Shown here: piece by piece, positions 1 through 17,787 of the stretch
Layout of the letters: each line of letters starts with the position of its first letter
Position numbering within the stretch: the stretch's first letter is position 1
Origin: Escherichia phage vB_EcoM_VR26
Strand: one strand, 5' to 3'
Sequence record: NC_028957.1
Length of the DNA: 64,000 nucleotides
The notes under the pieces: model-generated
The model's database searches: none
Seen by the model: only the letters and a program-made list of their open reading frames with translations
What the model was told of the DNA's origin: nothing
Translations under genes and position numbers: made by a program

Positions 1-1389
1 TTCACGCCCACGAGATTTAATCGTTTCGTTGAATTCTTCATCAAGCGTAAAACTATAATCAGCTTCCATAACTTTCAGATAAGCATTAATTTGCTTATTA
101 AAGATAGGAATATATTTCTTAATAATCGCGCCTTTGATTCCAGAATCTTTCAACATATCCGTTAAGATACCACGTTGATATTTTTCCATAACAAGGTTTG
201 ATTTCTGTTTGACTATTTTATCAAGCTGGTCTTGAAGCGTTTTAATATCATCGGCATGGTCAATGAATTCAGACTTAGCTTGTTCAATTAACGTCTTAAC
301 CTTTTTAGCTTTATCCACAGTCTGGATTAACGTTTGTTTCTTAGTTTGAATCTCTTGAGCTATTGTACGTTGGTTTTGTCTTGCTTCAGCGTACGCATCA
401 AATCGTTCCTGAATGGAGGCCTGGAGAGCTTTATGGCTATCAGACTCACGATTATACTCTTCAATCTTTGTCTCAATCCTGGGGACTATGGAGTCTCCTG
501 GCGACAATTGACTCAAACACGTTTGGCAACAACCGCCTTTCTCGTACAAACCGATTACCTTACGGAAGCTATCGATTTTCGATTTAATCAGGAACGATTC
601 TTGCTTGACTTTCGTCAGTTCCTGTTCAGGGTCTTCACCCAAAATAATCTCGGTCAATCTTGTCGTTGCTTCATCAATCGTTGATTTGATATCACGAGCT
701 TCTGAAGCCAAATCATCATACATCGTTTGCAGTCGTAGCAGATTATCACCGGATAATTTTTTCTGCTTTTCAACGTTGTCCTGGTAGATTTTAATCTGTT
801 GCACAACACCATCATGCTGAACGTCAATCACCTGGATTTGACTGTTGACTTCACGGATAAGAGATTTGTTGAGCTTATCCATATCAGCCAGTACAGAAAC
901 CTCTAGCAGGTCTTCGACGAGTTTTCTTCTTGCAGGAGTGGATAGGCCCATGAAAGGGGTATATCCAGCTGTGCCGAGTACGACAATCTGTTTGAAACTG
1001 GCGTATGACATTCCGATAAGCTGTTCAAATTCTGCTTGGAAGTCTTTACTGCTGGCAGATTCATCAAGACGTTCACCGCCACAAGAGATTTCAAAAACAT
1101 TGGGTTTTTGCCCACGTTTGATATAGTATTCTTTGCCATCATATTCCATCCACAATTCAACGAGCATATCTTTTTTGTTGCTCGAGTTAATCAACTGCCC
1201 TTTCTTAACATCACGAAAAGGCTTACCAAACAATGCAAATGTAACGGCTTCAAGGAAGGTTGATTTACCTGCACCGTTCTTACCGGTCACCAGAGTTTTC
1301 TGGACCTTATCGAGTTGAACCGTAATTGCTTGTGCTCCAACTGACATAATATTTTTATAGATAACTTTCTTTAGCTTAAAAGTCTTCAT
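1..1389 (-). CDS. 46: Recombination endonuclease subunit gp46 (Rad50/SbcC-like ATPase), N-terminal ~463 codons; 3' end lies beyond window start
   Basis: Not in ORF track (no stop inside window). Reverse translation from ATG at 1389 reads MKTFKLKKVIYKNIMSVGAQAIT...LDKVQKTLVTGKNGAGKSTFLEAVT (Walker A), matching T4 gp46 N-terminus from memory; sits downstream of gene 47 as in T4. Confidence 0.85.
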   Translation of the reverse strand, partial: MKTFKLKKVIYKNIMSVGAQAITVQLDKVQKTLVTGKNGAGKSTFLEAVTFALFGKPFRDVKKGQLINSSNKKDMLVELWMEYDGKEYYIKRGQKPNVFEISCGGERLDESASSKDFQAEFEQLIGMSYASFKQIVVLGTAGYTPFMGLSTPARRKLVEDLLEVSVLADMDKLNKSLIREVNSQIQVIDVQHDGVVQQIKIYQDNVEKQKKLSGDNLLRLQTMYDDLASEARDIKSTIDEATTRLTEIILGEDPEQELTKVKQESFLIKSKIDSFRKVIGLYEKGGCCQTCLSQLSPGDSIVPRIETKIEEYNRESDSHKALQASIQERFDAYAEARQNQRTIAQEIQTKKQTLIQTVDKAKKVKTLIEQAKSEFIDHADDIKTLQDQLDKIVKQKSNLVMEKYQRGILTDMLKDSGIKGAIIKKYIPIFNKQINAYLKVMEADYSFTLDEEFNETIKSRGRE

Positions 1390-5421: not shown

Positions 5422-5646
5422 TTAAATTTTCCAGTTACCGTTTTCATCAATAAATTTAATCCAGTCATTTACTGACCACTTAGTTGTATCGCCTTTTGGA
5501 GCAGAATTTAAAGTGTATAATCCTTGTTTAAAAAGCATTCGTTTAATATTCATGTTTTCCTCAGCTGTAACGATAACATTCGTTTGATTTACGCTTTGCA
5601 ACACGGTGAGAAGTATTATAATCCAAATCATCCTCAACGTATACAT
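5422..5646 (-). CDS. hypothetical small protein with N-terminal hydrophobic segment (74 aa)
   Basis: ORF track; MYTLRMIWIIILLTVLQS looks like a signal/TM segment. Confidence 0.4.
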   Translation of the reverse strand: MYTLRMIWIIILLTVLQSVNQTNVIVTAEENMNIKRMLFKQGLYTLNSAPKGDTTKWSVNDWIKFIDENGNWKI

Positions 5647-5878
5647 CTTTTTTCAACTGACGAACTTCTTTACGCAGTTGACGATTCATCTCATTCTTAA
5701 CTTCTGAATCAACACCACGCATACGCTTCCATTTGTCGGAACGGAAGATATTTTCGTTCAAAGTTTCTTCTGATACACCATCAGGCGCTTTACGTCTAGC
5801 TATGCAATTAAAATCTTTAGAAGACAAATCTTTACGACGAATAGTTTTACCCATAGTTACCTCAGCAGTTAGCGTCAA
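5561..5878 (-). CDS. hypothetical basic protein (105 aa)
   Basis: ORF track; K/R-rich; 86-nt overlap with downstream ORF so one of the two boundaries is uncertain. Confidence 0.4.
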   Translation of the reverse strand: MTLTAEVTMGKTIRRKDLSSKDFNCIARRKAPDGVSEETLNENIFRSDKWKRMRGVDSEVKNEMNRQLRKEVRQLKKDVYVEDDLDYNTSHRVAKRKSNECYRYS

Positions 5879-6137
5879 TAAGATTTTTGATATACTGGAT
5901 ATCTTTGATACCCAAATCCAACTTAAGGTCTTCCAGACGTTCGCCCAGGGACAAAAAGGTTACATGCTTCCAATTTTTTATTGGGCAACAATAAGTCTTA
6001 GGACCATTTGCAATTTCAATATTCTTATCAGCGATGGTGAGAAAAATCAGACGCTCATCATCCAGATTAAGGGTAATGATATTTTTCATTGCGTGTAATT
6101 TAAGGCTCATGATTTGATTTCCTCTGCTACTGCACAA
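5862..6137 (-). CDS. hypothetical protein (91 aa)
   Basis: ORF track. Confidence 0.4.
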   Translation of the reverse strand: MCSSRGNQIMSLKLHAMKNIITLNLDDERLIFLTIADKNIEIANGPKTYCCPIKNWKHVTFLSLGERLEDLKLDLGIKDIQYIKNLIDANC

Positions 6138-6289
6138 AACACGCTACGGTCACACACCATCTGTGGGGCATCAGGCCAATTCAAAGGTTGATACCATACA
6201 TCCAGACTTGATATTTTAGTTACTTGAACAGGATAGCCATTTACAGAATAATACCGGTCAACTTTAATTTCTTTATCTTGAACAACCAT
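6107..6289 (-). CDS. hypothetical protein (60 aa)
   Basis: ORF track; preceded by promoter-like cassette at 6321-6353. Confidence 0.4.
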   Translation of the reverse strand: MVVQDKEIKVDRYYSVNGYPVQVTKISSLDVWYQPLNWPDAPQMVCDRSVFCAVAEEIKS

Positions 6290-6320
6290 TTTGTTTTCCT
6301 CATCAGTAGTTGATGGGATA

Positions 6321-6353
6321 ATGATACATCATTCAAAGGGGCTTGTACACCCC
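6321..6353 (-). promoter_or_regulatory. Early-promoter/stem-loop cassette (PeSL-like)
   Basis: GC hairpin GGGG-tgtacaag-CCCC with -35-like GTGTAC in loop, about 17 nt to TATCAT. Confidence 0.4.
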
Positions 6354-6356
6354 TTT

Positions 6357-6674
6357 TTAATCTTCAATTAAGTCCTGGTCATACCCCAAGGATATCAGTT
6401 TTGTTTTAAAGGCAGGAATATTGGTCATTTTTTCATCATTGACAAAAATCACCGGGTAACGAATGTTAAGGGTAGGATATCCAGCACGCTTAGCCAGAGA
6501 CACGATTAAAGGCCTGTCATAAGCGATTTCAGAGCCTTGTTTGTTAAGGACTGAATAGAATGTATAGGGAAGGTTTAAGGAGCCCAGAAGGCTCCTGATG
6601 TGCATACAACCAGGGCATCGACCGACTTCTTCGGGAATGCCATAGATTTCAATTTTAGTCGAGTTTTGGCCCAC
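6357..6674 (-). CDS. Glutaredoxin/thioredoxin-fold protein with CPGC redox motif (nrdH-like position)
   Basis: 105 aa; KIEIYGIPEEVGRCPGCMHIRSLL resembles the N-terminal CxxC strand-helix of glutaredoxins; lies between 55 and 49 where T4 carries nrdH. Confidence 0.55.
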   Translation of the reverse strand: MGQNSTKIEIYGIPEEVGRCPGCMHIRSLLGSLNLPYTFYSVLNKQGSEIAYDRPLIVSLAKRAGYPTLNIRYPVIFVNDEKMTNIPAFKTKLISLGYDQDLIED

Positions 6675-6954
6675 AGGAAATTACTCCTTGGTAGTTCCAG
6701 GTTTTAATAACTTCTTCATCACTGGTAGTTTCATACGGAATGTAAACCTGTACAAGGAAACCAGTGTCATCGAAAGAGAAATAAACTGTCGGTTTGATTC
6801 CATGAATCTCGGATTGGGCATAGATATCTTTAAGGTCTTCTTCCTTATCAGCAAAGAATTCCGGGTTCAGGTCACAGTCATGGAAGTACCATTCATCACC
6901 GAACTTGTCCCACGCGGTCCAATTAGTAGCTACATATTCTTCAAAACGTTTCAT
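6655..6954 (-). CDS. hypothetical protein (99 aa)
   Basis: ORF track. Confidence 0.45.
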   Translation of the reverse strand: MKRFEEYVATNWTAWDKFGDEWYFHDCDLNPEFFADKEEDLKDIYAQSEIHGIKPTVYFSFDDTGFLVQVYIPYETTSDEEVIKTWNYQGVISCGPKLD

Positions 6955-7166
6955 TCTTTCACCTTCATCATTTTAGCAATAACACTATGGACAGCCTGGA
7001 TTCGTTTGTCGAACTCAGAGCTTTCGAGGCCAGGATTGGTGCTCAACCAACCAATGATAACAAACAGCAAACCAAACGGGATAGCCAGAATAAGCAGACA
7101 AACGATGAACAACACAAGCGTTATGTTTGCCAGAATATCTGCTGCTGCATTACGAAAATTATTCAT
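6951..7166 (-). CDS. hypothetical small membrane protein (71 aa)
   Basis: ORF track; central hydrophobic stretch LVLFIVCLLILAIPFGLLFVIIGWL. Confidence 0.5.
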   Translation of the reverse strand: MNNFRNAAADILANITLVLFIVCLLILAIPFGLLFVIIGWLSTNPGLESSEFDKRIQAVHSVIAKMMKVKE

Positions 7167-7287
7167 AGAATAGCCCAGGTATTATTAACAACAAATAACC
7201 ATAGAGAAGGATATTCTACACCCATGCGGCGGATAATATCATTCATAGATTCAGCTAAAGCATAAAATGTGTAGCCATAAAAATTAA

Positions 7288-7761
7288 TCATTTGAGCGAT
7301 TTCCTCAGTTGTTTTTTAAATGAAGCTTGTAGTTTAGGCTTCGTATCAGATTCATTATAAGTCATACCGTTCAAAAGCATTTCCTGAATCATTTCTTCTT
7401 TTCCCAGGCGACCAAACTCTTTGGCTTTGTCTGTCACAAAATTGGGGTGAATATTGTTTTCGGTATAATCAGATTTCAGATAGACAAGCAAACTCTCTAA
7501 CCATTCCAGGTAGTCAACATCGCGACCTTTCAGACCCGAGCGGCTGAACTTATGCTTCATTTGTCCTTCTGTTCCATTGCACAGATTGCATAGTAACCCA
7601 CGAACCTTACCGGCTTTTGGCCCGTTCAATTCGTGGTCATGGTCAAGATGGTTGGCCTGAACATCGGAGTCCAAATCACGGTGGCAAATTGGACACTTAC
7701 CAGCTTGTGCATCATAAAGTTTTTGTTTTTCTTCTTTGTATAATTTGCCAGTCAACAACAT
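7288..7761 (-). CDS. 49: Endonuclease VII, Holliday-junction resolvase gp49
   Basis: 157 aa; MLLTGKLYKEEKQK...HLDHDHELNGPKAGKVRGLLCNLCN matches T4 gp49 from memory. Confidence 0.95.
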   Translation of the reverse strand: MLLTGKLYKEEKQKLYDAQAGKCPICHRDLDSDVQANHLDHDHELNGPKAGKVRGLLCNLCNGTEGQMKHKFSRSGLKGRDVDYLEWLESLLVYLKSDYTENNIHPNFVTDKAKEFGRLGKEEMIQEMLLNGMTYNESDTKPKLQASFKKQLRKSLK

Positions 7762-7796
7762 AATAAACCCTTACCATTATTAGATAAGGGTATTTA

Positions 7797-7973
7797 TTAA
7801 ATATTATAGAACGAGCGATGCAACCGTTTAAATTGACGAATCATCTTTTTGGTAGGACGAGTATACAATCCCACACAGGTGGCCATAAACTGGTCAGTAG
7901 GACTTCCCTTGATAAAAAGTTTCCAGACCTTACCACCATTTAACTTTTCAGTATAGACTAATTCAGTTTTCAT
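7797..7973 (-). CDS. hypothetical small basic protein (58 aa), below ORF-track cutoff
   Basis: Own translation: MKTELVYTEKLNGGKVWKLFIKGSPTDQFMATCVGLYTRPTKKMIRQFKRLHRSFYNI; ATG overlaps upstream stop as TAATG. Confidence 0.45.
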   Translation of the reverse strand: MKTELVYTEKLNGGKVWKLFIKGSPTDQFMATCVGLYTRPTKKMIRQFKRLHRSFYNI

Positions 7974-13045: not shown

Positions 13046-13570
13046 TTATGCGTGAACCGTCTTTAAACGCTCTTCAAATTTCAGAAGGAGTACCTGGCGC
13101 TCTGCTCTTTGTTTGGTATAGGTTTCAATACGCTCTGAAGTGAGATTGTATTGTTCATTAACTGATTCCCGCATGAATTCAGGAATCTCTTTACATGCTT
13201 TGATTTCATTGAACTTATCAAGCACTGCTTGTTGTTCAGCAATCAGACCATCATAATATTGGATATCTGATTTGATGTTCTGTACATCAGATTCAGTTGG
13301 CATATTTTTCTTTGCTCTTGCCGCTTGATACTCAGCATTAGTCTCTCTTGACCAGAACAAAGAGCGGTTTTTGTTAGTGTTTTTATACACATCAACAATA
13401 CCAACTGAATCAACAGTCACAATCCAGTTCCAGGCGTTTTTATAAGTTTGACCACCTGATACTGTAATCTCACCTGCACAAGCAACATCATTAAAGAACT
13501 TGCTTTGTGCTTCTGATTTAAAATTACCATTATTGTAATTAATCAGATTAAAGATTGATTTGACTTCCAT
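13046..13570 (-). CDS. hypothetical protein (174 aa)
   Basis: ORF track; preceded by SD GGGAG and promoter cassette 13608-13637. Confidence 0.55.
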   Translation of the reverse strand: MEVKSIFNLINYNNGNFKSEAQSKFFNDVACAGEITVSGGQTYKNAWNWIVTVDSVGIVDVYKNTNKNRSLFWSRETNAEYQAARAKKNMPTESDVQNIKSDIQYYDGLIAEQQAVLDKFNEIKACKEIPEFMRESVNEQYNLTSERIETYTKQRAERQVLLLKFEERLKTVHA

Positions 13571-13607
13571 TTTATTCTCCCGTTTGTTTGGTAACTCAGT
13601 ATAGGAA

Positions 13608-13637
13608 CATTATGTCACGCTCCCATACTGGTGTACA
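13608..13637 (-). promoter_or_regulatory. T4-type early promoter
   Basis: Minus strand GTGTAC -18 nt- CATAAT, inverted repeat cagtatggga/tcctatactg flanking the -10, conserved leader ctgagttaccaaa. Confidence 0.5.
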
Positions 13638-13640
13638 CAT

Positions 13641-13943
13641 TTAATTAAAAGTTCTTTCAGTATTTTCACCACTGAACCAGGCGCTCTTAACAGCTTGCTG
13701 TGCGCGATGAATCTGTTCAGCCATATAAACACCAAGGGCCTCTGCCTTTCTTGTCCTGTGGGCTTCTGCGGCGACCATTTGCAGCTTATCCATCATGATA
13801 AGAGCTTTACATTTCTCCTTCAGAGCATAACGTTTCTTCTCTTCTGGAGGTTTGACCATTCCTCTTAACTTGTGCATTTTCAACTTAAAATGGTCAGCAG
13901 ATTTAAGACATGCATCAATCATGTCAATTTCATACTTTTTCAT
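13641..13943 (-). CDS. hypothetical protein (100 aa)
   Basis: ORF track. Confidence 0.45.
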   Translation of the reverse strand: MKKYEIDMIDACLKSADHFKLKMHKLRGMVKPPEEKKRYALKEKCKALIMMDKLQMVAAEAHRTRKAEALGVYMAEQIHRAQQAVKSAWFSGENTERTFN

Positions 13944-13949
13944 AATTCC

Positions 13950-14156
13950 TCACTTGCGACGACGTTTTGGTAATGGTTTAGGGAAGAACATTGCTTTACC
14001 TGCAGGGGTCAAAGTCACACGCAAAGCATTACCAATACCAAGGGATGATTTAACCAGACCTTTGGCTTTTAACTCACCAAATGCTTGGCGTTGTTCAGGG
14101 TCACGTGTGTTAACCATCAGACCTTTTTCACCAGCAGCTTTGATTAATTCTAACAT
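13950..14156 (-). CDS. hypothetical basic protein (68 aa)
   Basis: ORF track; preceded by promoter cassette 14197-14226. Confidence 0.45.
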   Translation of the reverse strand: MLELIKAAGEKGLMVNTRDPEQRQAFGELKAKGLVKSSLGIGNALRVTLTPAGKAMFFPKPLPKRRRK

Positions 14157-14196
14157 TTTATTCTCCAGTTTTTATTTGGTAACTCAGTATGGGAAC

Positions 14197-14226
14197 ATTA
14201 TACGTCTATCCCATACTGATGTACAT
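14197..14226 (-). promoter_or_regulatory. T4-type early promoter
   Basis: ATGTAC -18- TATAAT with flanking inverted repeat and conserved leader. Confidence 0.5.
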
Positions 14227-14403
14227 CTATTTTATATAATTTTTAATATCAATTCTACCCTGGTAGTGCTTGGCGGTTTCCTTCATCTTTTCTACGTCAA
14301 TACCAACAATAACCTCACATGATTGACTTCCATGATGGTGTTTAAAATGTTCAATCGCTTCCTCTCGCGTTTGTTTGGATACGCGCGGTCTCATATGATT
14401 CAT
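14227..14403 (-). CDS. hypothetical His-rich small protein (58 aa), below ORF-track cutoff
   Basis: Own translation MNHMRPRVSKQTREEAIEHFKHHHGSQSCEVIVGIDVEKMKETAKHYQGRIDIKNYIK; strong SD TAAGGAG 6 nt upstream. Confidence 0.45.
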   Translation of the reverse strand: MNHMRPRVSKQTREEAIEHFKHHHGSQSCEVIVGIDVEKMKETAKHYQGRIDIKNYIK

Positions 14404-14464
14404 AAGGGCTCCTTAGTAAAAATTCATTATGCATCAACAGAGACAAGTTTGTATACCTTTAAAA

Positions 14465-14491
14465 TAAAAAAAAAAGGACCCCGAAGGGTCC
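14465..14491 (-). terminator. Rho-independent terminator
   Basis: Minus strand GGACCC-ttcg-GGGTCC followed by 10 T. Confidence 0.65.
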
Positions 14492-14734
14492 TTAGATTGC
14501 ACTCCAAAAATTATGGAATCTTATAGTATTGATAGCCCAGTTAACAAAACGCCTGGTTTGTTTGGAAGTTGGTTTACACGTGTACTTAATGTTGATTCGT
14601 CTGCCAGTTTCCCGACAGACTGCTTCGAGATACCAGCGCCGACCTTTATTGGGTCTTCCATATGATAAGAAGACCTTCATTTCTTCATTAACGATAATAG
14701 GAATTGTGGTTGTCAAGATATACCTCTTCAACAA
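14492..14734 (-). CDS. hypothetical basic protein (80 aa; may start at internal Met 14680)
   Basis: ORF track; followed by hairpin plus T-run terminator. Confidence 0.4.
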   Translation of the reverse strand: MLKRYILTTTIPIIVNEEMKVFLSYGRPNKGRRWYLEAVCRETGRRINIKYTCKPTSKQTRRFVNWAINTIRFHNFWSAI

Positions 14735-15698
14735 ACTTGTCCCAGAACTTCATGTCTACCTTATCAGGCATACCGTTCTTGGCCGCCCAGACGGCATTGG
14801 TTTCGACTTCATCGACGATTGCTTCAAGTTCAGCTTGTACATCTTTAAAAGCGTGTAGGCCTTGTTTGATTTCAAGGATAAATGGAGCCGTACGTAAAGG
14901 ATATTGAAGGTCACCGGTCATATAAATTTCCTTCAGCTGATATCCAGCTCGATAAGCATGACTCAATGCTTTCCAGTCAATACCTTCATTCGCTTCGGCC
15001 TTACGAGCGCGTTCACCATATTCGGCATCAAGTTTATTCAGAGATTGCTTAAGCTCGATTAATGACAAAGTAGTTTGGTATTTGCGACCGAGAACAGTAT
15101 AAAACGTTTGAGGACCGGTTTTCTCATGGTTATGGAACACCCATTCGCAAAATTCGTTCTCTGGAAGACGATGCTTAATATCTTCAACTTTAGTACGACG
15201 TTGTTTAGTCGTACCATCTTCTTGGTAGTCAACCCACTGTTCAGGAATCTGGTTAACAATTGCCAGTACACCACGTAAAGCAGCCAGTCTAGAACCTTTA
15301 ACACCATATTTTGAAGCTTGCTTACGGACATACCCCAAATATGCTTTCATGTTGGTCGTATAGAACCGTGAACGGTTGTCTTGGATAAATTTCCATACAT
15401 CTGGTAAATCGGATTTGACTACCAGGTTAGCCGGAGTGTGAATCATGTCCAGAGCAACAGTTTCACCTTCAGCCGCCAGTTTAAAGAAATATTTCAGGCT
15501 ATAAAGCTCGTGGTCAACATCGTCTTTAGTGTTTTTGGATGCCGTGTTATTCGTGTTCAAGTTTGTATGATTCATAGCCGTACCTAACAGAATGTCACGT
15601 GGGTGTGGAACAAAGATTTCCTTAAAATCGACATCAGATTCAGGAGTACTTGTTCCATAAAGATGTGAGCCAAAATAGCCCTTCATAACTGTTCTCAT
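14688..15698 (-). CDS. Predicted polymerase-beta-fold nucleotidyltransferase (336 aa)
   Basis: N-terminal GSHLYGTSTPESDVD fits the hG[GS]x9-13DxD motif; T4 has an uncharacterised nucleotidyltransferase-like ORF in the nrdC region. Confidence 0.6.
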   Translation of the reverse strand: MRTVMKGYFGSHLYGTSTPESDVDFKEIFVPHPRDILLGTAMNHTNLNTNNTASKNTKDDVDHELYSLKYFFKLAAEGETVALDMIHTPANLVVKSDLPDVWKFIQDNRSRFYTTNMKAYLGYVRKQASKYGVKGSRLAALRGVLAIVNQIPEQWVDYQEDGTTKQRRTKVEDIKHRLPENEFCEWVFHNHEKTGPQTFYTVLGRKYQTTLSLIELKQSLNKLDAEYGERARKAEANEGIDWKALSHAYRAGYQLKEIYMTGDLQYPLRTAPFILEIKQGLHAFKDVQAELEAIVDEVETNAVWAAKNGMPDKVDMKFWDKFVEEVYLDNHNSYYR

Positions 15699-16462
15699 TA
15701 TTCGCCTCTTTCATAGTCTTCAATAAATTGCATAATTAAACGTTGATAGTTAGATTTACGGTATCCTAATTTACTAATATGAGTACCAAAAGCTCCACGC
15801 TTAGGCCTATTTAATTTAACCCATAAAGAATAAAGCAAATCATAATCTTGCCAATGTTTTCCTATTCTTTGCTTTGCTTTAGAAGCGTCGGACTGCCTCT
15901 TTTTAGTCTCTGGATTATTTAGAGATTTCTTAACAGCATTTGAATGTCTTTCTCTAACACCCGGGCGTTTAAATGCTTCTTTAACAGATTTAGAAATTTT
16001 CTCTTTAACTTCAGGACGGTTTTGAGCTTCTATTTGAGCCGCCGACATTTTATCTTTTATTTCGGATAGACTCATAGTTATAGAACGTTTATTTCTATAC
16101 TCTTTGGTCTTCCATAGTTCTTTCATCGTATTTGAATGAATTTCTGAAAATTTTTCTCTAACTAATTGGTAGCCCCTAGAAGTTAGTTTAAGATTTCTTC
16201 CTAGAGAATCCTCGCCGAAGTTATAAAATGACCACCAGGCATAAATTAATCCAGAAGAATCAGAATGAATTCTGGCTAGAAGCCAGTGTGCTATAAAATG
16301 TTCTCTGGCCGTCAGCAGAACTAAATTATTAGGTTCATCACTCCCACCAATACATGATGGGAGTATATGATGGGACTCTGTATAAAAATTTAATTTGGAT
16401 TTGTCTAATCCTCTGAATTTACCTCTTTGGATTAGACTATCATAAAGCTTTGTATAATTCAT
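15698..16462 (-). CDS. HNH homing endonuclease (Mob-like)
   Basis: ESHHILPSCIGGSDEPNNLVLLTAREHFIAHW HNH core; start placed at internal MNYTKLYDSL (track extends to 16501). Confidence 0.75.
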   Translation of the reverse strand: MNYTKLYDSLIQRGKFRGLDKSKLNFYTESHHILPSCIGGSDEPNNLVLLTAREHFIAHWLLARIHSDSSGLIYAWWSFYNFGEDSLGRNLKLTSRGYQLVREKFSEIHSNTMKELWKTKEYRNKRSITMSLSEIKDKMSAAQIEAQNRPEVKEKISKSVKEAFKRPGVRERHSNAVKKSLNNPETKKRQSDASKAKQRIGKHWQDYDLLYSLWVKLNRPKRGAFGTHISKLGYRKSNYQRLIMQFIEDYERGE

Positions 16463-16464
16463 TA

Positions 16465-16920
16465 TTATTTTGTTTTGTCCTCGAAGTGAATTACCGGACA
16501 CATCTTAGATTTACGAGCTTTAATGTATTGGACGACAAGGTTTTCTTTAATTTCCTTTCCTTCACGCTCAGCTTTAATTCGTTTCCATTCTTTTTCTTCT
16601 TTATGTAAATCGTACCAGGTCCATAAATTCATTAGACCATACATTAAACCAAATGCTACCGCCAGAATAAGAGCCAGTGTAGATAGCCCCAAAATAAAAC
16701 CTAACCCCAAACCAACAGGAGTACTTAATACAAAGAACTGCTCCAATACACCAGCACCTGCAACAGTTAAGGCGAAAATAGTACTACCTGCAACCACAGA
16801 AAAAACAAAACAGGCCCATACAATTTTCCAGAAGTAAGCACACAATGAGTGTGGTCGAGAATGACGGTCATAAAAACGGTCGTGTAATTTAGCGTGCCAA
16901 GCGTTTGTATTGATAATCAT
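16465..16920 (-). CDS. hypothetical membrane protein (151 aa)
   Basis: Multiple hydrophobic segments. Confidence 0.5.
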   Translation of the reverse strand: MIINTNAWHAKLHDRFYDRHSRPHSLCAYFWKIVWACFVFSVVAGSTIFALTVAGAGVLEQFFVLSTPVGLGLGFILGLSTLALILAVAFGLMYGLMNLWTWYDLHKEEKEWKRIKAEREGKEIKENLVVQYIKARKSKMCPVIHFEDKTK

Positions 16921-16929
16921 AATAATTCC

Positions 16930-17484
16930 TTATGCGTTCATAGTTGGGATAACAGTGTTCAGGTATTTTACCAGAACTTTTAATTCGTCTTTAGCGAATA
17001 CTACTTCAGCTTCACCATCGTGGGTCTGGATGATAGATAACATATCGCGACCTTGATGTTGGCAGACACTGAATTCAGTATTATAATCACCTTCTTCATC
17101 ACCTTCAAAGGTTTCGCTTGAATGCATAATAGCATCACAACCAGGGATTTTCCACTCGAGCTCAGGTACGCACTCTTCTTGGAAGAGTTTAAAAATTTTC
17201 TCTAAAAATTCTGAACGGTTTTTAATGGATAAACAAGCCCATTCGGTTTCCAGATTAAAGCCATTTTCACCTCGATACAACCAAGCCACAACTTCATCGT
17301 TAATTTTAAAGACACGATTATTAGTTCGAATATACTGCTCTGCATCAATAACAGACAACTCGTACAGGTTCTGAATATCTTGAATGGTCAAAACGACTGT
17401 ATCATCTTCTTGTTTAAGCACGATTGCATTATCAATTACATCAGCAGTCAGGTCACCAAACAACCCAGATTTTTCAATAATCAT
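16930..17484 (-). CDS. hypothetical protein (184 aa)
   Basis: ORF track. Confidence 0.5.
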   Translation of the reverse strand: MIIEKSGLFGDLTADVIDNAIVLKQEDDTVVLTIQDIQNLYELSVIDAEQYIRTNNRVFKINDEVVAWLYRGENGFNLETEWACLSIKNRSEFLEKIFKLFQEECVPELEWKIPGCDAIMHSSETFEGDEEGDYNTEFSVCQHQGRDMLSIIQTHDGEAEVVFAKDELKVLVKYLNTVIPTMNA

Positions 17485-17496
17485 TTTAATTTCCTC

Positions 17497-17787
17497 TTAA
17501 CGGTTATGTTTTAAAATACTATAAAGAGCTTCTACTTGGCTTGCATCCAGGTAAATAACATCATCATCTTGCTCAATGGAAATCCCACCGGTATTTCCTT
17601 CAACGAAATTACATTCACACACTTCAATTGTCCTGTACACATCACCAGTCGGATGCTCAGGTTCCAGAACAATAATACCATTTTCAGAATTACCACTAGG
17701 GTCATATAACATTACAGTTTCCTCGCTAACCATGAAAAGAATAAACCAATTAAAACAGGCCCTACAGCCATTATTAACCAAGCCCAA
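17497..17787 (-). CDS. hypothetical protein (96 aa)
   Basis: ORF track. Confidence 0.45.
   Translation of the reverse strand: MGLVNNGCRACFNWFILFMVSEETVMLYDPSGNSENGIIVLEPEHPTGDVYRTIEVCECNFVEGNTGGISIEQDDDVIYLDASQVEALYSILKHNR

Follow-up and report, generated by a model that had tools for sequence, protein, structure and literature searches.

At this locus, two overlapping genes lie on the minus strand of the 64,000-nucleotide window, by which we mean the whole stretch of Escherichia phage vB_EcoM_VR26 DNA that was analyzed (sequence record NC_028957.1). They are bordered by a membrane-protein gene on the 5' side and by a small open reading frame (ORF) and a terminator-like hairpin on the 3' side, as follows:

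16465 to 16920, minus strand: gene for a 151-amino-acid (aa) membrane protein (match to the PHROG 944 membrane proteins, E = 4e-54), which bounds the mobD insertion on its upstream side.
15698 to 16462, minus strand: mobD ortholog according to sequence matches, a free-standing HNH homing-endonuclease gene encoding 254 aa from its ATG.
16286 to 16372, minus strand: HNH motif, MobD codons 31 to 59, HHILPSCIGGSDEPNNLVLLTAREHFIAH, readable in the sequence.
14688 to 15698, minus strand: nrdC.11 ortholog, encoding a long-form RlaP (PF10127) Pol-beta nucleotidyltransferase of 336 aa (sequence matches and AF2 model).
14521 to 14661, minus strand: small ORF of 46 aa, conserved and open in 24 T4-like phages, located between the terminator and nrdC.11.
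14474 to 14493, minus strand: intrinsic terminator-like hairpin, AAGGACCC-TTCG-GGGTCCTT and then a T-run, the likely end of the transcription unit (consensus scan).

The sequence-only reading had described, at 14688 to 16462, a protein with a nucleotidyltransferase (NTase) fold encoded immediately downstream of a Mob-like HNH endonuclease gene. Both ORFs are genuine, lie at these positions on the minus strand, and have PHROG matches. The 1-nucleotide (nt) overlap claimed for them was also present: the junction reads GGC GAA TAATG AGA, in which base 15698 belongs both to the TAA of mobD and to the start codon (ATG) of the NTase gene. The overlap is equally 1 nt in phage E33 and is 17 nt in T4. 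At its other end, mobD starts with an ATG (16462) located 2 nt past the stop codon of the preceding membrane-protein gene; with a GTG start instead, the frame spans 15698 to 16501. The terminator-like hairpin has 8 pairs, 5 of them G-C, and is followed by T9. The 46-aa ORF is 60 to 100% identical across the 24 T4-like phages and is annotated as VR7ORF100c in phage VR7. A promoter-like scan returned 14 sites, no better than shuffled sequence (11.8 ± 3.3), and an Rfam search of 13500 to 17500 found nothing. The 64-kb window contains only two phage tRNA genes.

The genes flanking nrdC.11 and mobD match nrdC.8, nrdC.9, mobD.1 (y05I-like), and tk-region genes. On the transcribed strand, the order mobD then nrdC.11 is the same on the T4 map, and the E33 arrangement is identical; in both phages, nrdC.11 likewise lies in the nrdC-to-tk early region, 3' of mobD. 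The T4 locus differs in that mobD.1 is found upstream of mobD, where the membrane-protein gene stands here, and in that nrdC.10 is replaced here by the downstream small ORFs. The pair is the known T4 mobD-nrdC.11 arrangement, already in GenBank for T4 and E33, and public records and the literature already contain the gene order and the family assignments of both proteins.

Judged by its sequence, the HNH gene is an ortholog of T4 mobD, so the neighbor that had been called Mob-like is MobD itself. The protein is 79.8% identical to T4 MobD (252 of 254 residues), 95.7% to its E33 counterpart, and 94.9% to that of TH40, and it matched the PHROG 655 homing endonucleases (E = 3e-55). This match and the identity to T4 MobD show that the frame is not a chance ORF. 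HNH-type residues are present (H31/H32, N46, and H55), and the Pfam HNH models aligned to residues 28 to 50 below threshold (E = 0.012 to 0.05; 14 to 16 bits, with a cutoff of 21.4). In JS10, a homolog of the membrane-protein gene directly adjoins nrdC.11 with an ATGA overlap; relative to this phage, mobD is an exact ORF-sized insertion. JS10 and TH22 lack it at this site, E33 and T4 have it, and TH40, going by the match, probably does as well. Thus, mobD shows a fixed-site presence/absence polymorphism between conserved genes among close relatives. Comparison of the nrdC.11 5' ends between mobD-containing (window, E33, and T4) and mobD-lacking (TH22 and JS10) phages revealed no diagnostic substitutions that could serve as a homing-site signature. 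T4 MobD is grouped with the free-standing homing endonucleases of this phage, with its activity listed as "ND" and its target as "unknown," and it too is encoded by a promoter-less cassette directly 5' of nrdC.11 (PMC2988022). Since mobD is optional (absent in JS10 and TH22), its adjacency to nrdC.11 appears incidental, and we saw no sign that it has functional meaning.

The 336-aa protein, whose N-terminus is MRTVMKGYFGSHLYGTSTPESDVDFKEIF, is orthologous to NrdC.11 of phage T4. The T4 protein (NP_049709; T4p095) has the same length, and tblastn gave identities of 82.4% to T4 NrdC.11, 96.7% to JS10 NrdC.11, and 99.4% to the TH22 protein; the identity to VR7 NrdC.11 is 99%. Orthology is thus established by 82 to 99% identity over all 336 aa and by the retained position in the nrdC-tk region. 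The Tevenvirinae orthologs in VR7, JS10, SP18, and E33 are orthologs of T4 NrdC.11 as well, with 97 to 99% identity of the window protein to those of JS10, VR7, and TH22. The profile search for a subfamily that had been proposed placed NrdC.11 as a long-form member of the RlaP family (PF10127) of Pol-beta nucleotidyltransferases, in a long NrdC.11 clade. It matched PHROG 388 (E = 4e-132) and Pfam RlaP (E = 1.2e-10; 41.9 bits, with a cutoff of 23), scores showing that the frame is not a chance ORF, and nearly all of its homologs carry a precomputed PF10127 assignment. The Pfam match is confined to residues 8 to 134, which correspond to profile positions 25 to 142 of 249. When the NrdC.11 clade was aligned with canonical short RlaP by hhalign, the NTase domain gave a probability of 95.9 and E = 5e-9. 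NCBIfam gave no match, a PDB sequence search returned nothing at E <= 1, and the BFVD viral structure library contained only uncharacterized phage "nucleotidyltransferases" as matches.

Four segments of NrdC.11 were of particular interest:

15627 to 15671, minus strand: G10-S11-x10-D22-V23-D24, the NTP/metal-binding motif, codons 10 to 24 (alignment of 128 homologs).
15507 to 15521, minus strand: D-V-D-H-E, codons 60 to 64, a predicted strand with the third catalytic carboxylate D62 (alignment and prediction).
15075 to 15239, minus strand: beta-rich segment, codons 154 to 208, with five predicted strands, possibly inserted when compared with the canonical RlaP profile.
14949 to 14978, minus strand: D-W-K-A-L-S-H-A-Y-R, codons 241 to 250, the invariant motif of the C-terminal helical domain (alignment).

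The motif had been read as GS-x11-DVD. GS and DVD are indeed present, and the spacer has 10 residues (positions 12 to 21) instead of 11. Conservation was determined in 128 aligned NrdC.11 homologs with 22 to 93% identity. The proposed NTase fold had been tied to conservation of the catalytic Asp residues, and these are conserved: D22 and D24 are found in 100% of the homologs, G10 and S11 in 99%, and position 62 is acidic in 99% (93% Asp and 6% Glu). D62 lies inside a predicted strand (residues 61 to 67) and was aligned by hhalign (E = 5e-9) to the invariant D82 of canonical short RlaP; the nearby D60 and E64 are conserved in 95% and 93% of the homologs, respectively. Thus, NrdC.11 shows the Pol-beta signature hG[GS]-x9-13-DxD with a third conserved carboxylate, and its fold is of the Pol-beta type with an intact catalytic motif. 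The N-terminal NTase domain of canonical bacterial RlaP is homologous and likewise contains GS...DxD and a third Asp. In the C-terminal half of NrdC.11, D241, H247, and R250 are conserved in 100% and K243 in 98% of the homologs.

Structure prediction, which had been suggested as a check, gave an AF2 model with a pLDDT of 91.5. It combines an alpha/beta NTase domain at the N-terminus with a C-terminal half that is helical (residues 213 to 335). Canonical bacterial RlaP also has a helical C-terminal half, and in the PfRlaP crystal structure, the C-terminal helical domain makes a cleft with the NTase domain. The C-terminal half of NrdC.11 presumably positions the acceptor substrate. In sequence, this half (approximately residues 138 to 336) does not significantly resemble canonical RlaP, with the Pfam match stopping at residue 134, and hhalign of the C-terminal halves of long and short RlaP detected no significant similarity (E = 0.12). 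In this nonsignificant alignment, K243/H247/R250 stand opposite the invariant K161/Y165/R168 of short RlaP, so that the residues of a K-x3-[H/Y]-x2-R pattern appear aligned. NrdC.11 also differs from canonical bacterial RlaP in being about 70 residues longer and in having the beta-rich segment 154 to 208. When residues ~151 to 210 were cut in silico, the end of the Pfam RlaP match moved from profile position 142 to 183, a modest lengthening obtained with an artificial test construct. Based on this and on the model, the beta-rich segment may be an insertion relative to canonical RlaP. Because of the divergent C-terminal half and the possible insertion, the substrate specificity of NrdC.11 could differ from that of canonical RlaP. 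The closest solved structures were the kanamycin nucleotidyltransferase ANT(4') and Hailong HalB, at 11 to 13% identity and Foldseek E values no better than 0.01; their acceptor substrates differ, and they have no family-level sequence relation to NrdC.11. An identity as an aminoglycoside NTase was rejected, its sole support being fold-level similarity at 11% identity.

The RlaP family owes its name to its genomic association with RNA ligase and RNA-repair genes. T4 gave the first RNA-repair system, in which Pnk and Rnl1 act against PrrC; RloC-type anticodon nucleases excise a nucleotide, and repair is thereby frustrated. RlaP was named by Burroughs and Aravind in 2016, as cited in PMC12776372 and PMC7824862. 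According to a December 2025 preprint (PMC12776372), two Pseudomonas RlaPs (from P. fluorescens and P. aeruginosa), whose genes lie in rtcB-rlaP-rtcA operons, add 1 or 2 NMPs to RNA 3'-OH ends and are inactive toward DNA and protein. Their favored metal is Mn2+, and of a cleaved-tRNA mimic they favor the 5' half. Bacterial RlaPs label rRNA-sized, tRNA-sized, and single-stranded RNAs and use all four NTPs with little specificity (PMC12776372). The earlier statement that the substrate is unknown therefore no longer applies to the RlaP family and still applies to NrdC.11, both here and in T4. In the PF10127 sequence network of the same preprint, T4 NrdC.11 belongs to cluster 5, apart from the characterized RlaPs in cluster 1a.

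The gene context of the long clade was analyzed at 80 bacterial and archaeal loci. A canonical RlaP gene was found immediately 3' of the long form at 14 loci. RtcB was encoded within 6 kb at 7 loci and Ro60/TROVE at 4, and the immediate neighbors included RtcA (2 loci) and a T4-Rnl1-type ligase (1 locus). RNA-repair neighbors thus occur at a minority of the 80 loci, and the association of the family with RNA-repair genes extends to the long clade in cellular genomes. Differing from the bacterial genes in this respect, phage nrdC.11 has no RNA ligase or kinase gene as a neighbor; we detected only co-occurrence in the same genome in VR7, the closest annotated phage, where pseT and rnlA are encoded ~87 kb from nrdC.11.

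Our preferred reading, which we consider moderately probable, is that NrdC.11 restores tRNA nucleotides by NMP addition before Pnk/Rnl1 sealing, and that mobD is a selfish adjacent cassette. The D22/D24/D62 triad, with a divalent metal, would catalyze untemplated transfer of 1 or 2 NMPs from NTPs to the 3'-OH of broken RNA; by analogy with the characterized bacterial enzymes, the preferred metal would be Mn2+. In the infected cell, NrdC.11 would replace anticodon-loop nucleotides removed by trimming host anticodon nucleases of the RloC type, and the phage polynucleotide kinase-phosphatase (PseT) and RNA ligase 1 would then reseal a full-length tRNA. The mobD cassette has inserted precisely at the boundary between the membrane-protein gene and the start codon of nrdC.11. 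It would be expressed within the same polycistronic unit, the adjacency reflecting a selfish insertion beside a conserved gene and not a joint function. We infer this activity, this in vivo substrate, and an anti-RloC-like role as the most likely ones. Restoration of the nucleotide removed by RloC was also predicted in PMC7824862. The remaining value of the locus lies in this biology, since NrdC.11 is possibly the missing nucleotide-restoring step that lets phage defeat RloC-like anticodon nucleases. The long clade's own RNA-repair neighborhoods in bacteria and its frequent pairing with short RlaP sharpen this question and leave the picture unchanged. In laboratory culture, T4 can lose the region that contains nrdC.11 (PMC9825161), which fits an accessory role and gives no functional clue.

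NrdC.11 could instead be an RNA 3'-end NTase acting on other ends, in the repair of truncated tRNA 3'-CCA tails or in a stabilizing or destabilizing tailing of other RNAs of phage or host, and not on anticodon-loop breaks, which we regard as rather unlikely. The varied RNAs labeled by bacterial RlaPs with little NTP specificity (PMC12776372) would suit such an enzyme, as would the unusual C-terminal half of NrdC.11, the tandem long and short forms in bacteria, which suggest separate specificities, and the small number of phage tRNA genes in the window (two). However, the ties of the long clade to genes for RtcB, RtcA, Ro60, and Rnl1-type ligase point to repair of breaks and not to upkeep of 3' tails, and fold searches showed no standout likeness to CCA-adding enzymes.

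The tandem arrangement also bears on how the two forms relate. Because the long form is often found in tandem with short RlaP in bacteria, the two are arguably not functionally redundant. Long RlaPs of the NrdC.11 type, with their divergent C-terminal domain and a beta-rich segment that may be an insertion, could be a functionally distinct subfamily. In bacteria they could be an obligate partner of short RlaP with divided labor, since the tandem pairs adjoin RtcB, RtcA, or Ro60, and in T4-like phages the long form by itself could be a countermeasure that restores the wobble nucleotide excised by RloC-type anticodon nucleases; we hold this stronger proposal to be unlikely. Split CC-adding and A-adding enzymes are a precedent for such a division of labor. 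Long and short RlaPs could, for example, add different nucleotides or act on different RNA ends.

A role for NrdC.11 in producing or consuming a nucleotide signal, as an oligo- or cyclic-nucleotide synthase or an anti-defense enzyme comparable to Hailong HalB and the CD-NTases, is very unlikely. The structural match, at only 11 to 13% identity, extends over the generic NTase core, with Foldseek E no better than 0.01; no PADLOC defense model matched NrdC.11 (E <= 0.1), the sequence assigns it to RlaP, and the characterized RlaPs extend RNA and yield no free oligonucleotides (PMC12776372). A still more doubtful idea is a fused MNT-HEPN-like or protein-AMPylating enzyme that would modify a host toxin or another protein in an antitoxin-like manner. 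Four-helix bundles yield many low-Z matches, the HEPN motif Rx4-6H is missing from NrdC.11, where the invariant motif is K-x3-H-x2-R, and E. coli proteins were not labeled by bacterial RlaP (PMC12776372). Comparison with CD-NTase, HalB, MenT/AbiEii, and MNT-HEPN revealed generic fold likeness only.

Least probable by far is a functional two-gene module of HNH endonuclease and NTase, with nicking followed by nucleotide addition, for instance: the short stop/start overlaps here and in E33 and T4 and the recurrence of the pair in several phage lineages would favor it, but we rejected it because mobD is an optional cassette, with JS10 and TH22 having nrdC.11 genes (97 to 99% identical) and no mobD at this site, MobD being counted among the T4 free-standing homing endonucleases (PMC2988022), HNH lying outside the top 25 Pfam families of the immediate neighbors of the cellular relatives and outside their annotated recurrent neighbor clusters, and ~1,440 near-full-length nrdC.11 matches standing against ~220 MobD-like ones in the phage collection.

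The sequence-only reading had described a nucleotidyltransferase (NTase) gene following a Mob-like HNH endonuclease gene with a 1-nt overlap, and both the ORF positions and the overlap were confirmed. The following minus-strand features are considered here.

13950..14403, minus strand: two small ORFs in place of nrdC.10, 58 aa (phrog_12120) and 68 aa (phrog_6001)
14493..14474, minus strand: strong terminator-like hairpin with a T-run, ~195 nt past the nrdC.11 stop
14521..14661, minus strand: 46-aa ORF starting MEDPIKVGAGISKQ, lying past the end of nrdC.11 and ahead of the terminator
14688..15698, minus strand: nrdC.11 (NTase), 336 aa
15698..16462, minus strand: HNH ORF, 254 aa from ATG (267 aa from an upstream GTG)

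Judged from sequence, both long ORFs are genuine genes, because their homology support is strong. Base 15698 is common to the stop codon of the HNH gene and the start codon of the NTase gene (junction GGC GAA TAATG AGA). Upstream lies a membrane-protein gene (151 aa), whose stop precedes the HNH-gene ATG by 2 nt. The HNH-type motif in the upstream protein is HHILPSCIGGSDEPNNLVLLTAREHFIAH. The NTase N-terminus is MRTVMKGYFGSHLYGTSTPESDVDF; of the proposed GS-x11-DVD motif, G10-S11 and D22-V23-D24 are present, but the spacer is x10, not x11. This is the T4-type mobD-nrdC.11 pair, which has been catalogued before. Both fold assignments (NTase and HNH) were correct.

The 336-aa protein is, with near certainty, the ortholog of T4 NrdC.11 (82.4% identity). 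Identity was 96.7% to the JS10 protein annotated as NrdC.11, 99% to VR7 NrdC.11, and 99.4% to the TH22 protein. By tblastn, 1,546 phage records were matched (near full length in 1,442), with Escherichia, Klebsiella, Aeromonas, Acinetobacter, and Vibrio among the hosts. Profile searches bore out the NTase fold and place the protein almost certainly in the RlaP family. PF10127 (RlaP, "RNA repair pathway DNA polymerase beta family") matched residues 8-134 only, scoring 41.9 bits (cutoff 23), and PHROG 388 "nucleotidyltransferase" matched at E = 4e-132. When 1.84 billion cluster representatives were scanned exhaustively with HMMER, E <= 1e-3 was reached by 3,053 relatives, of which 790 passed E <= 1e-30. 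Among the matches listed, almost all were 300-350 aa long and aligned end to end; therefore, the entire two-part architecture is conserved. Many NrdC.11 orthologs in GenBank and UniRef are labelled "thioredoxin," apparently a misannotation spread from the gene name nrdC.11, and the phage ZCEC14 record names its homolog "putative HNH homing endonuclease."

Residue conservation was analyzed in an alignment of the query with 127 homologs (22-93% identity). D22 and D24 were invariant, G10 and S11 were conserved at 99%, D60 at 95%, and E64 at 93%. Position 62, in the predicted strand 61-67, was acidic in 99% (93% Asp, 6% Glu), and D62 pairs with the Asp that is invariant in the canonical short RlaPs (hhalign probability 95.9, E = 5e-9). 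Thus, the catalytic carboxylates are conserved among homologs, a point on which the sequence-only reading had made its assignment depend. In the C-terminal half, R230, D241, H247, and R250 were invariant, and K243, K278, and G280 almost so. A confident AlphaFold2 model built from this alignment (pLDDT 91.5, pTM 0.77) shows an N-terminal alpha/beta NTase domain, helices (residues 99-150), a beta-rich segment (154-208), and a helical C-terminal part (213-335).

The long (NrdC.11-type) proteins resemble canonical RlaP in sequence over the NTase domain only, with the Pfam match stopping at residue 134. In an artificial construct, in-silico removal of residues ~151-210 stretched this match to profile position 183. 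An hhalign comparison of the C-terminal halves alone was not significant (E = 0.12); it sets the invariant K243/H247/R250 onto the short-form invariant K161/Y165/R168. The C-terminal domains of the two forms are probably homologous but strongly diverged, and the beta-rich segment may be an insertion. Because of this divergence and the possible insertion, acceptor specificity may differ from that of canonical RlaP. This possible difference is the chief uncertainty in carrying RlaP biochemistry over to NrdC.11.

That biochemistry comes from a December 2025 preprint of the Huang laboratory on two Pseudomonas RlaPs, whose genes lie between rtcB and rtcA (PMC12776372). These enzymes add 1 or 2 NMPs, or dNMPs, to an RNA 3'-OH with low NTP specificity and a preference for Mn2+ or Co2+; DNA and protein are not substrates (PMC12776372). 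In a cleaved-tRNA mimic, the 5' half was preferred; the enzymes also partly restored aminoacylation to a tRNA lacking one anticodon-loop nucleotide (PMC12776372). The authors proposed RlaP as the antidote for "smart" ribotoxins, RloC among them, which cut and then excise a nucleotide (PMC12776372). The PF10127 network explicitly places T4 NrdC.11 in cluster 5 and the characterized enzymes in cluster 1a (PMC12776372). A jumbo-phage survey likewise predicted that RlaP replaces lost nucleotides ahead of ligation (PMC7824862). Our search of the literature found no activity or phenotype reports for phage RlaP members; nrdC.11 lies within a block that can be lost from T4 under laboratory conditions (PMC9825161). 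On balance, we favor a role in which NrdC.11 would add 1-2 nucleotides without a template to damaged RNA 3' ends, which phage repair enzymes would then ligate; the enzymatic activity itself we infer. RlaP is a named family that is now partly characterized; what NrdC.11 does in vivo and the bacterial pairing of long and short RlaPs are the points of remaining interest.

Since similarity to canonical RlaP is limited to the NTase domain, the long clade was examined for RNA-repair associations of its own. We sampled 80 bacterial and archaeal loci with full-length relatives (30-50% identity, one genome per species); neighboring genes came from crude ORF calls, clustered and annotated by Pfam. A second RlaP-cluster member was present in 14 loci (L009, L014, L016, L030, L039, L042, L050, L052, L059, L063, L075, L077, L079, and L084), in most at about 6000-7800 of the locus. 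It was mostly a short RlaP of the canonical type (about 255-266 aa, matching PF10127 over its full length) directly downstream of the long gene, a tandem arrangement which suggests that the forms are not redundant. RtcB was found <6 kb away in 7/80 loci and Ro60/TROVE in 4/80, and RtcB, RtcA, or Ro60 was sometimes close to the tandems; L042 reads Ro60, RtcB, an unidentified gene, long NTase, short RlaP. Among 125 immediate neighbors, RlaP was commonest (11), followed by beta-eliminating lyase (3); RtcA (2), Ro60 (2), and a T4-Rnl1-type ligase (1) also occurred. These associations concern a minority of the loci and, by a rough estimate, would far exceed random placement of single-copy genes.

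Further loci were noted. In Ochrobactrum phage vB_OspM_OC (L004, genes at 1..1258 and 5995..6897), a distant NTase homolog (23% identity) lies ~5 kb from a Ro60-related gene, with MazG-like and HNH genes adjoining, a further loose tie to RNA quality control. The nearest "cellular" relatives (about 50% identity; ~5600-7000 in the Flagellimonas marina and Bacilli MAG loci, L005 and L006) adjoin a phage ProQ-C-like gene and have several neighbors in common; both are probably prophage or phage contigs, not chromosomal repair operons. In the phage lineage, the repair enzymes are encoded but lie far from nrdC.11: VR7 has pseT and rnlA ~87 kb away from it.

The HNH gene is by its sequence a mobD ortholog (79.8% identity to T4 MobD over 252 residues, 95.7% to E33, 94.9% to TH40; PHROG 655, E = 3e-55), in line with the Mob-type assignment; Pfam HNH models gave matches below threshold only. 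In order of transcription, T4 has mobD.1, mobD, and nrdC.11 and an overlap of 17 nt. E33 has a membrane-protein gene, mobD, and nrdC.11, and its overlap is 1 nt, as in the window. In JS10, the membrane-protein gene directly abuts nrdC.11, and a three-way alignment showed that the window differs from JS10 by an exact ORF-sized insertion. TH22 also lacks mobD at this site, although its NrdC.11 is 99.4% identical. The adjacency is therefore best explained as a selfish insertion beside a conserved gene. Comparison of nrdC.11 5' ends between phages with mobD (window, E33, T4) and without it (TH22, JS10) revealed no protected-target-site signature. A review of T4 mobile elements describes mobD as a free-standing HNH endonuclease gene inserted between mobD.1 and nrdC.11, with the entries "ND" for activity and "unknown" for target; the same source is inconsistent on its transcription, from upstream T4 promoters versus its own promoter inside the upstream gene (PMC2988022). 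Around the pair in the window, promoter-like matches did not exceed shuffled expectation, and an Rfam search of the region matched no family. VR7 offers another case of an RNA-repair gene beside a Mob-type endonuclease: its pseT (polynucleotide kinase) overlaps at the 3' end with a gene for a MobE-like homing endonuclease on the opposite strand (L087, 5375..6100, plus strand).

DNA relatives of the region (GC content ~39%) are T4-like Tevenvirinae, nearest the Gaprivervirus/Dhakavirus group: TH22 (96% identity), then VR7, SP18, and JS10. The pair is flanked by homologs of nrdC.6/.8/.9, mobD.1 (y05I-like), and the tk region; farther along, the plus strand carries what we take, from ORF sizes and the T4 map, to be baseplate genes. 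The 46-aa ORF is probably a genuine small gene: its frame is open in 24 T4-like phages (60-100% identity), and it is annotated in some relatives only, e.g., as VR7ORF100c. Only two tRNA genes, Arg-TCT and Met-CAT, were detected in the window (35359..35514, minus strand); the corresponding T4 region has eight. Downstream of nrdC.11, nrdC.10 (~326 aa in T4, JS10, and E33) is missing, and SP18-type phages share the layout of two small ORFs in its place.
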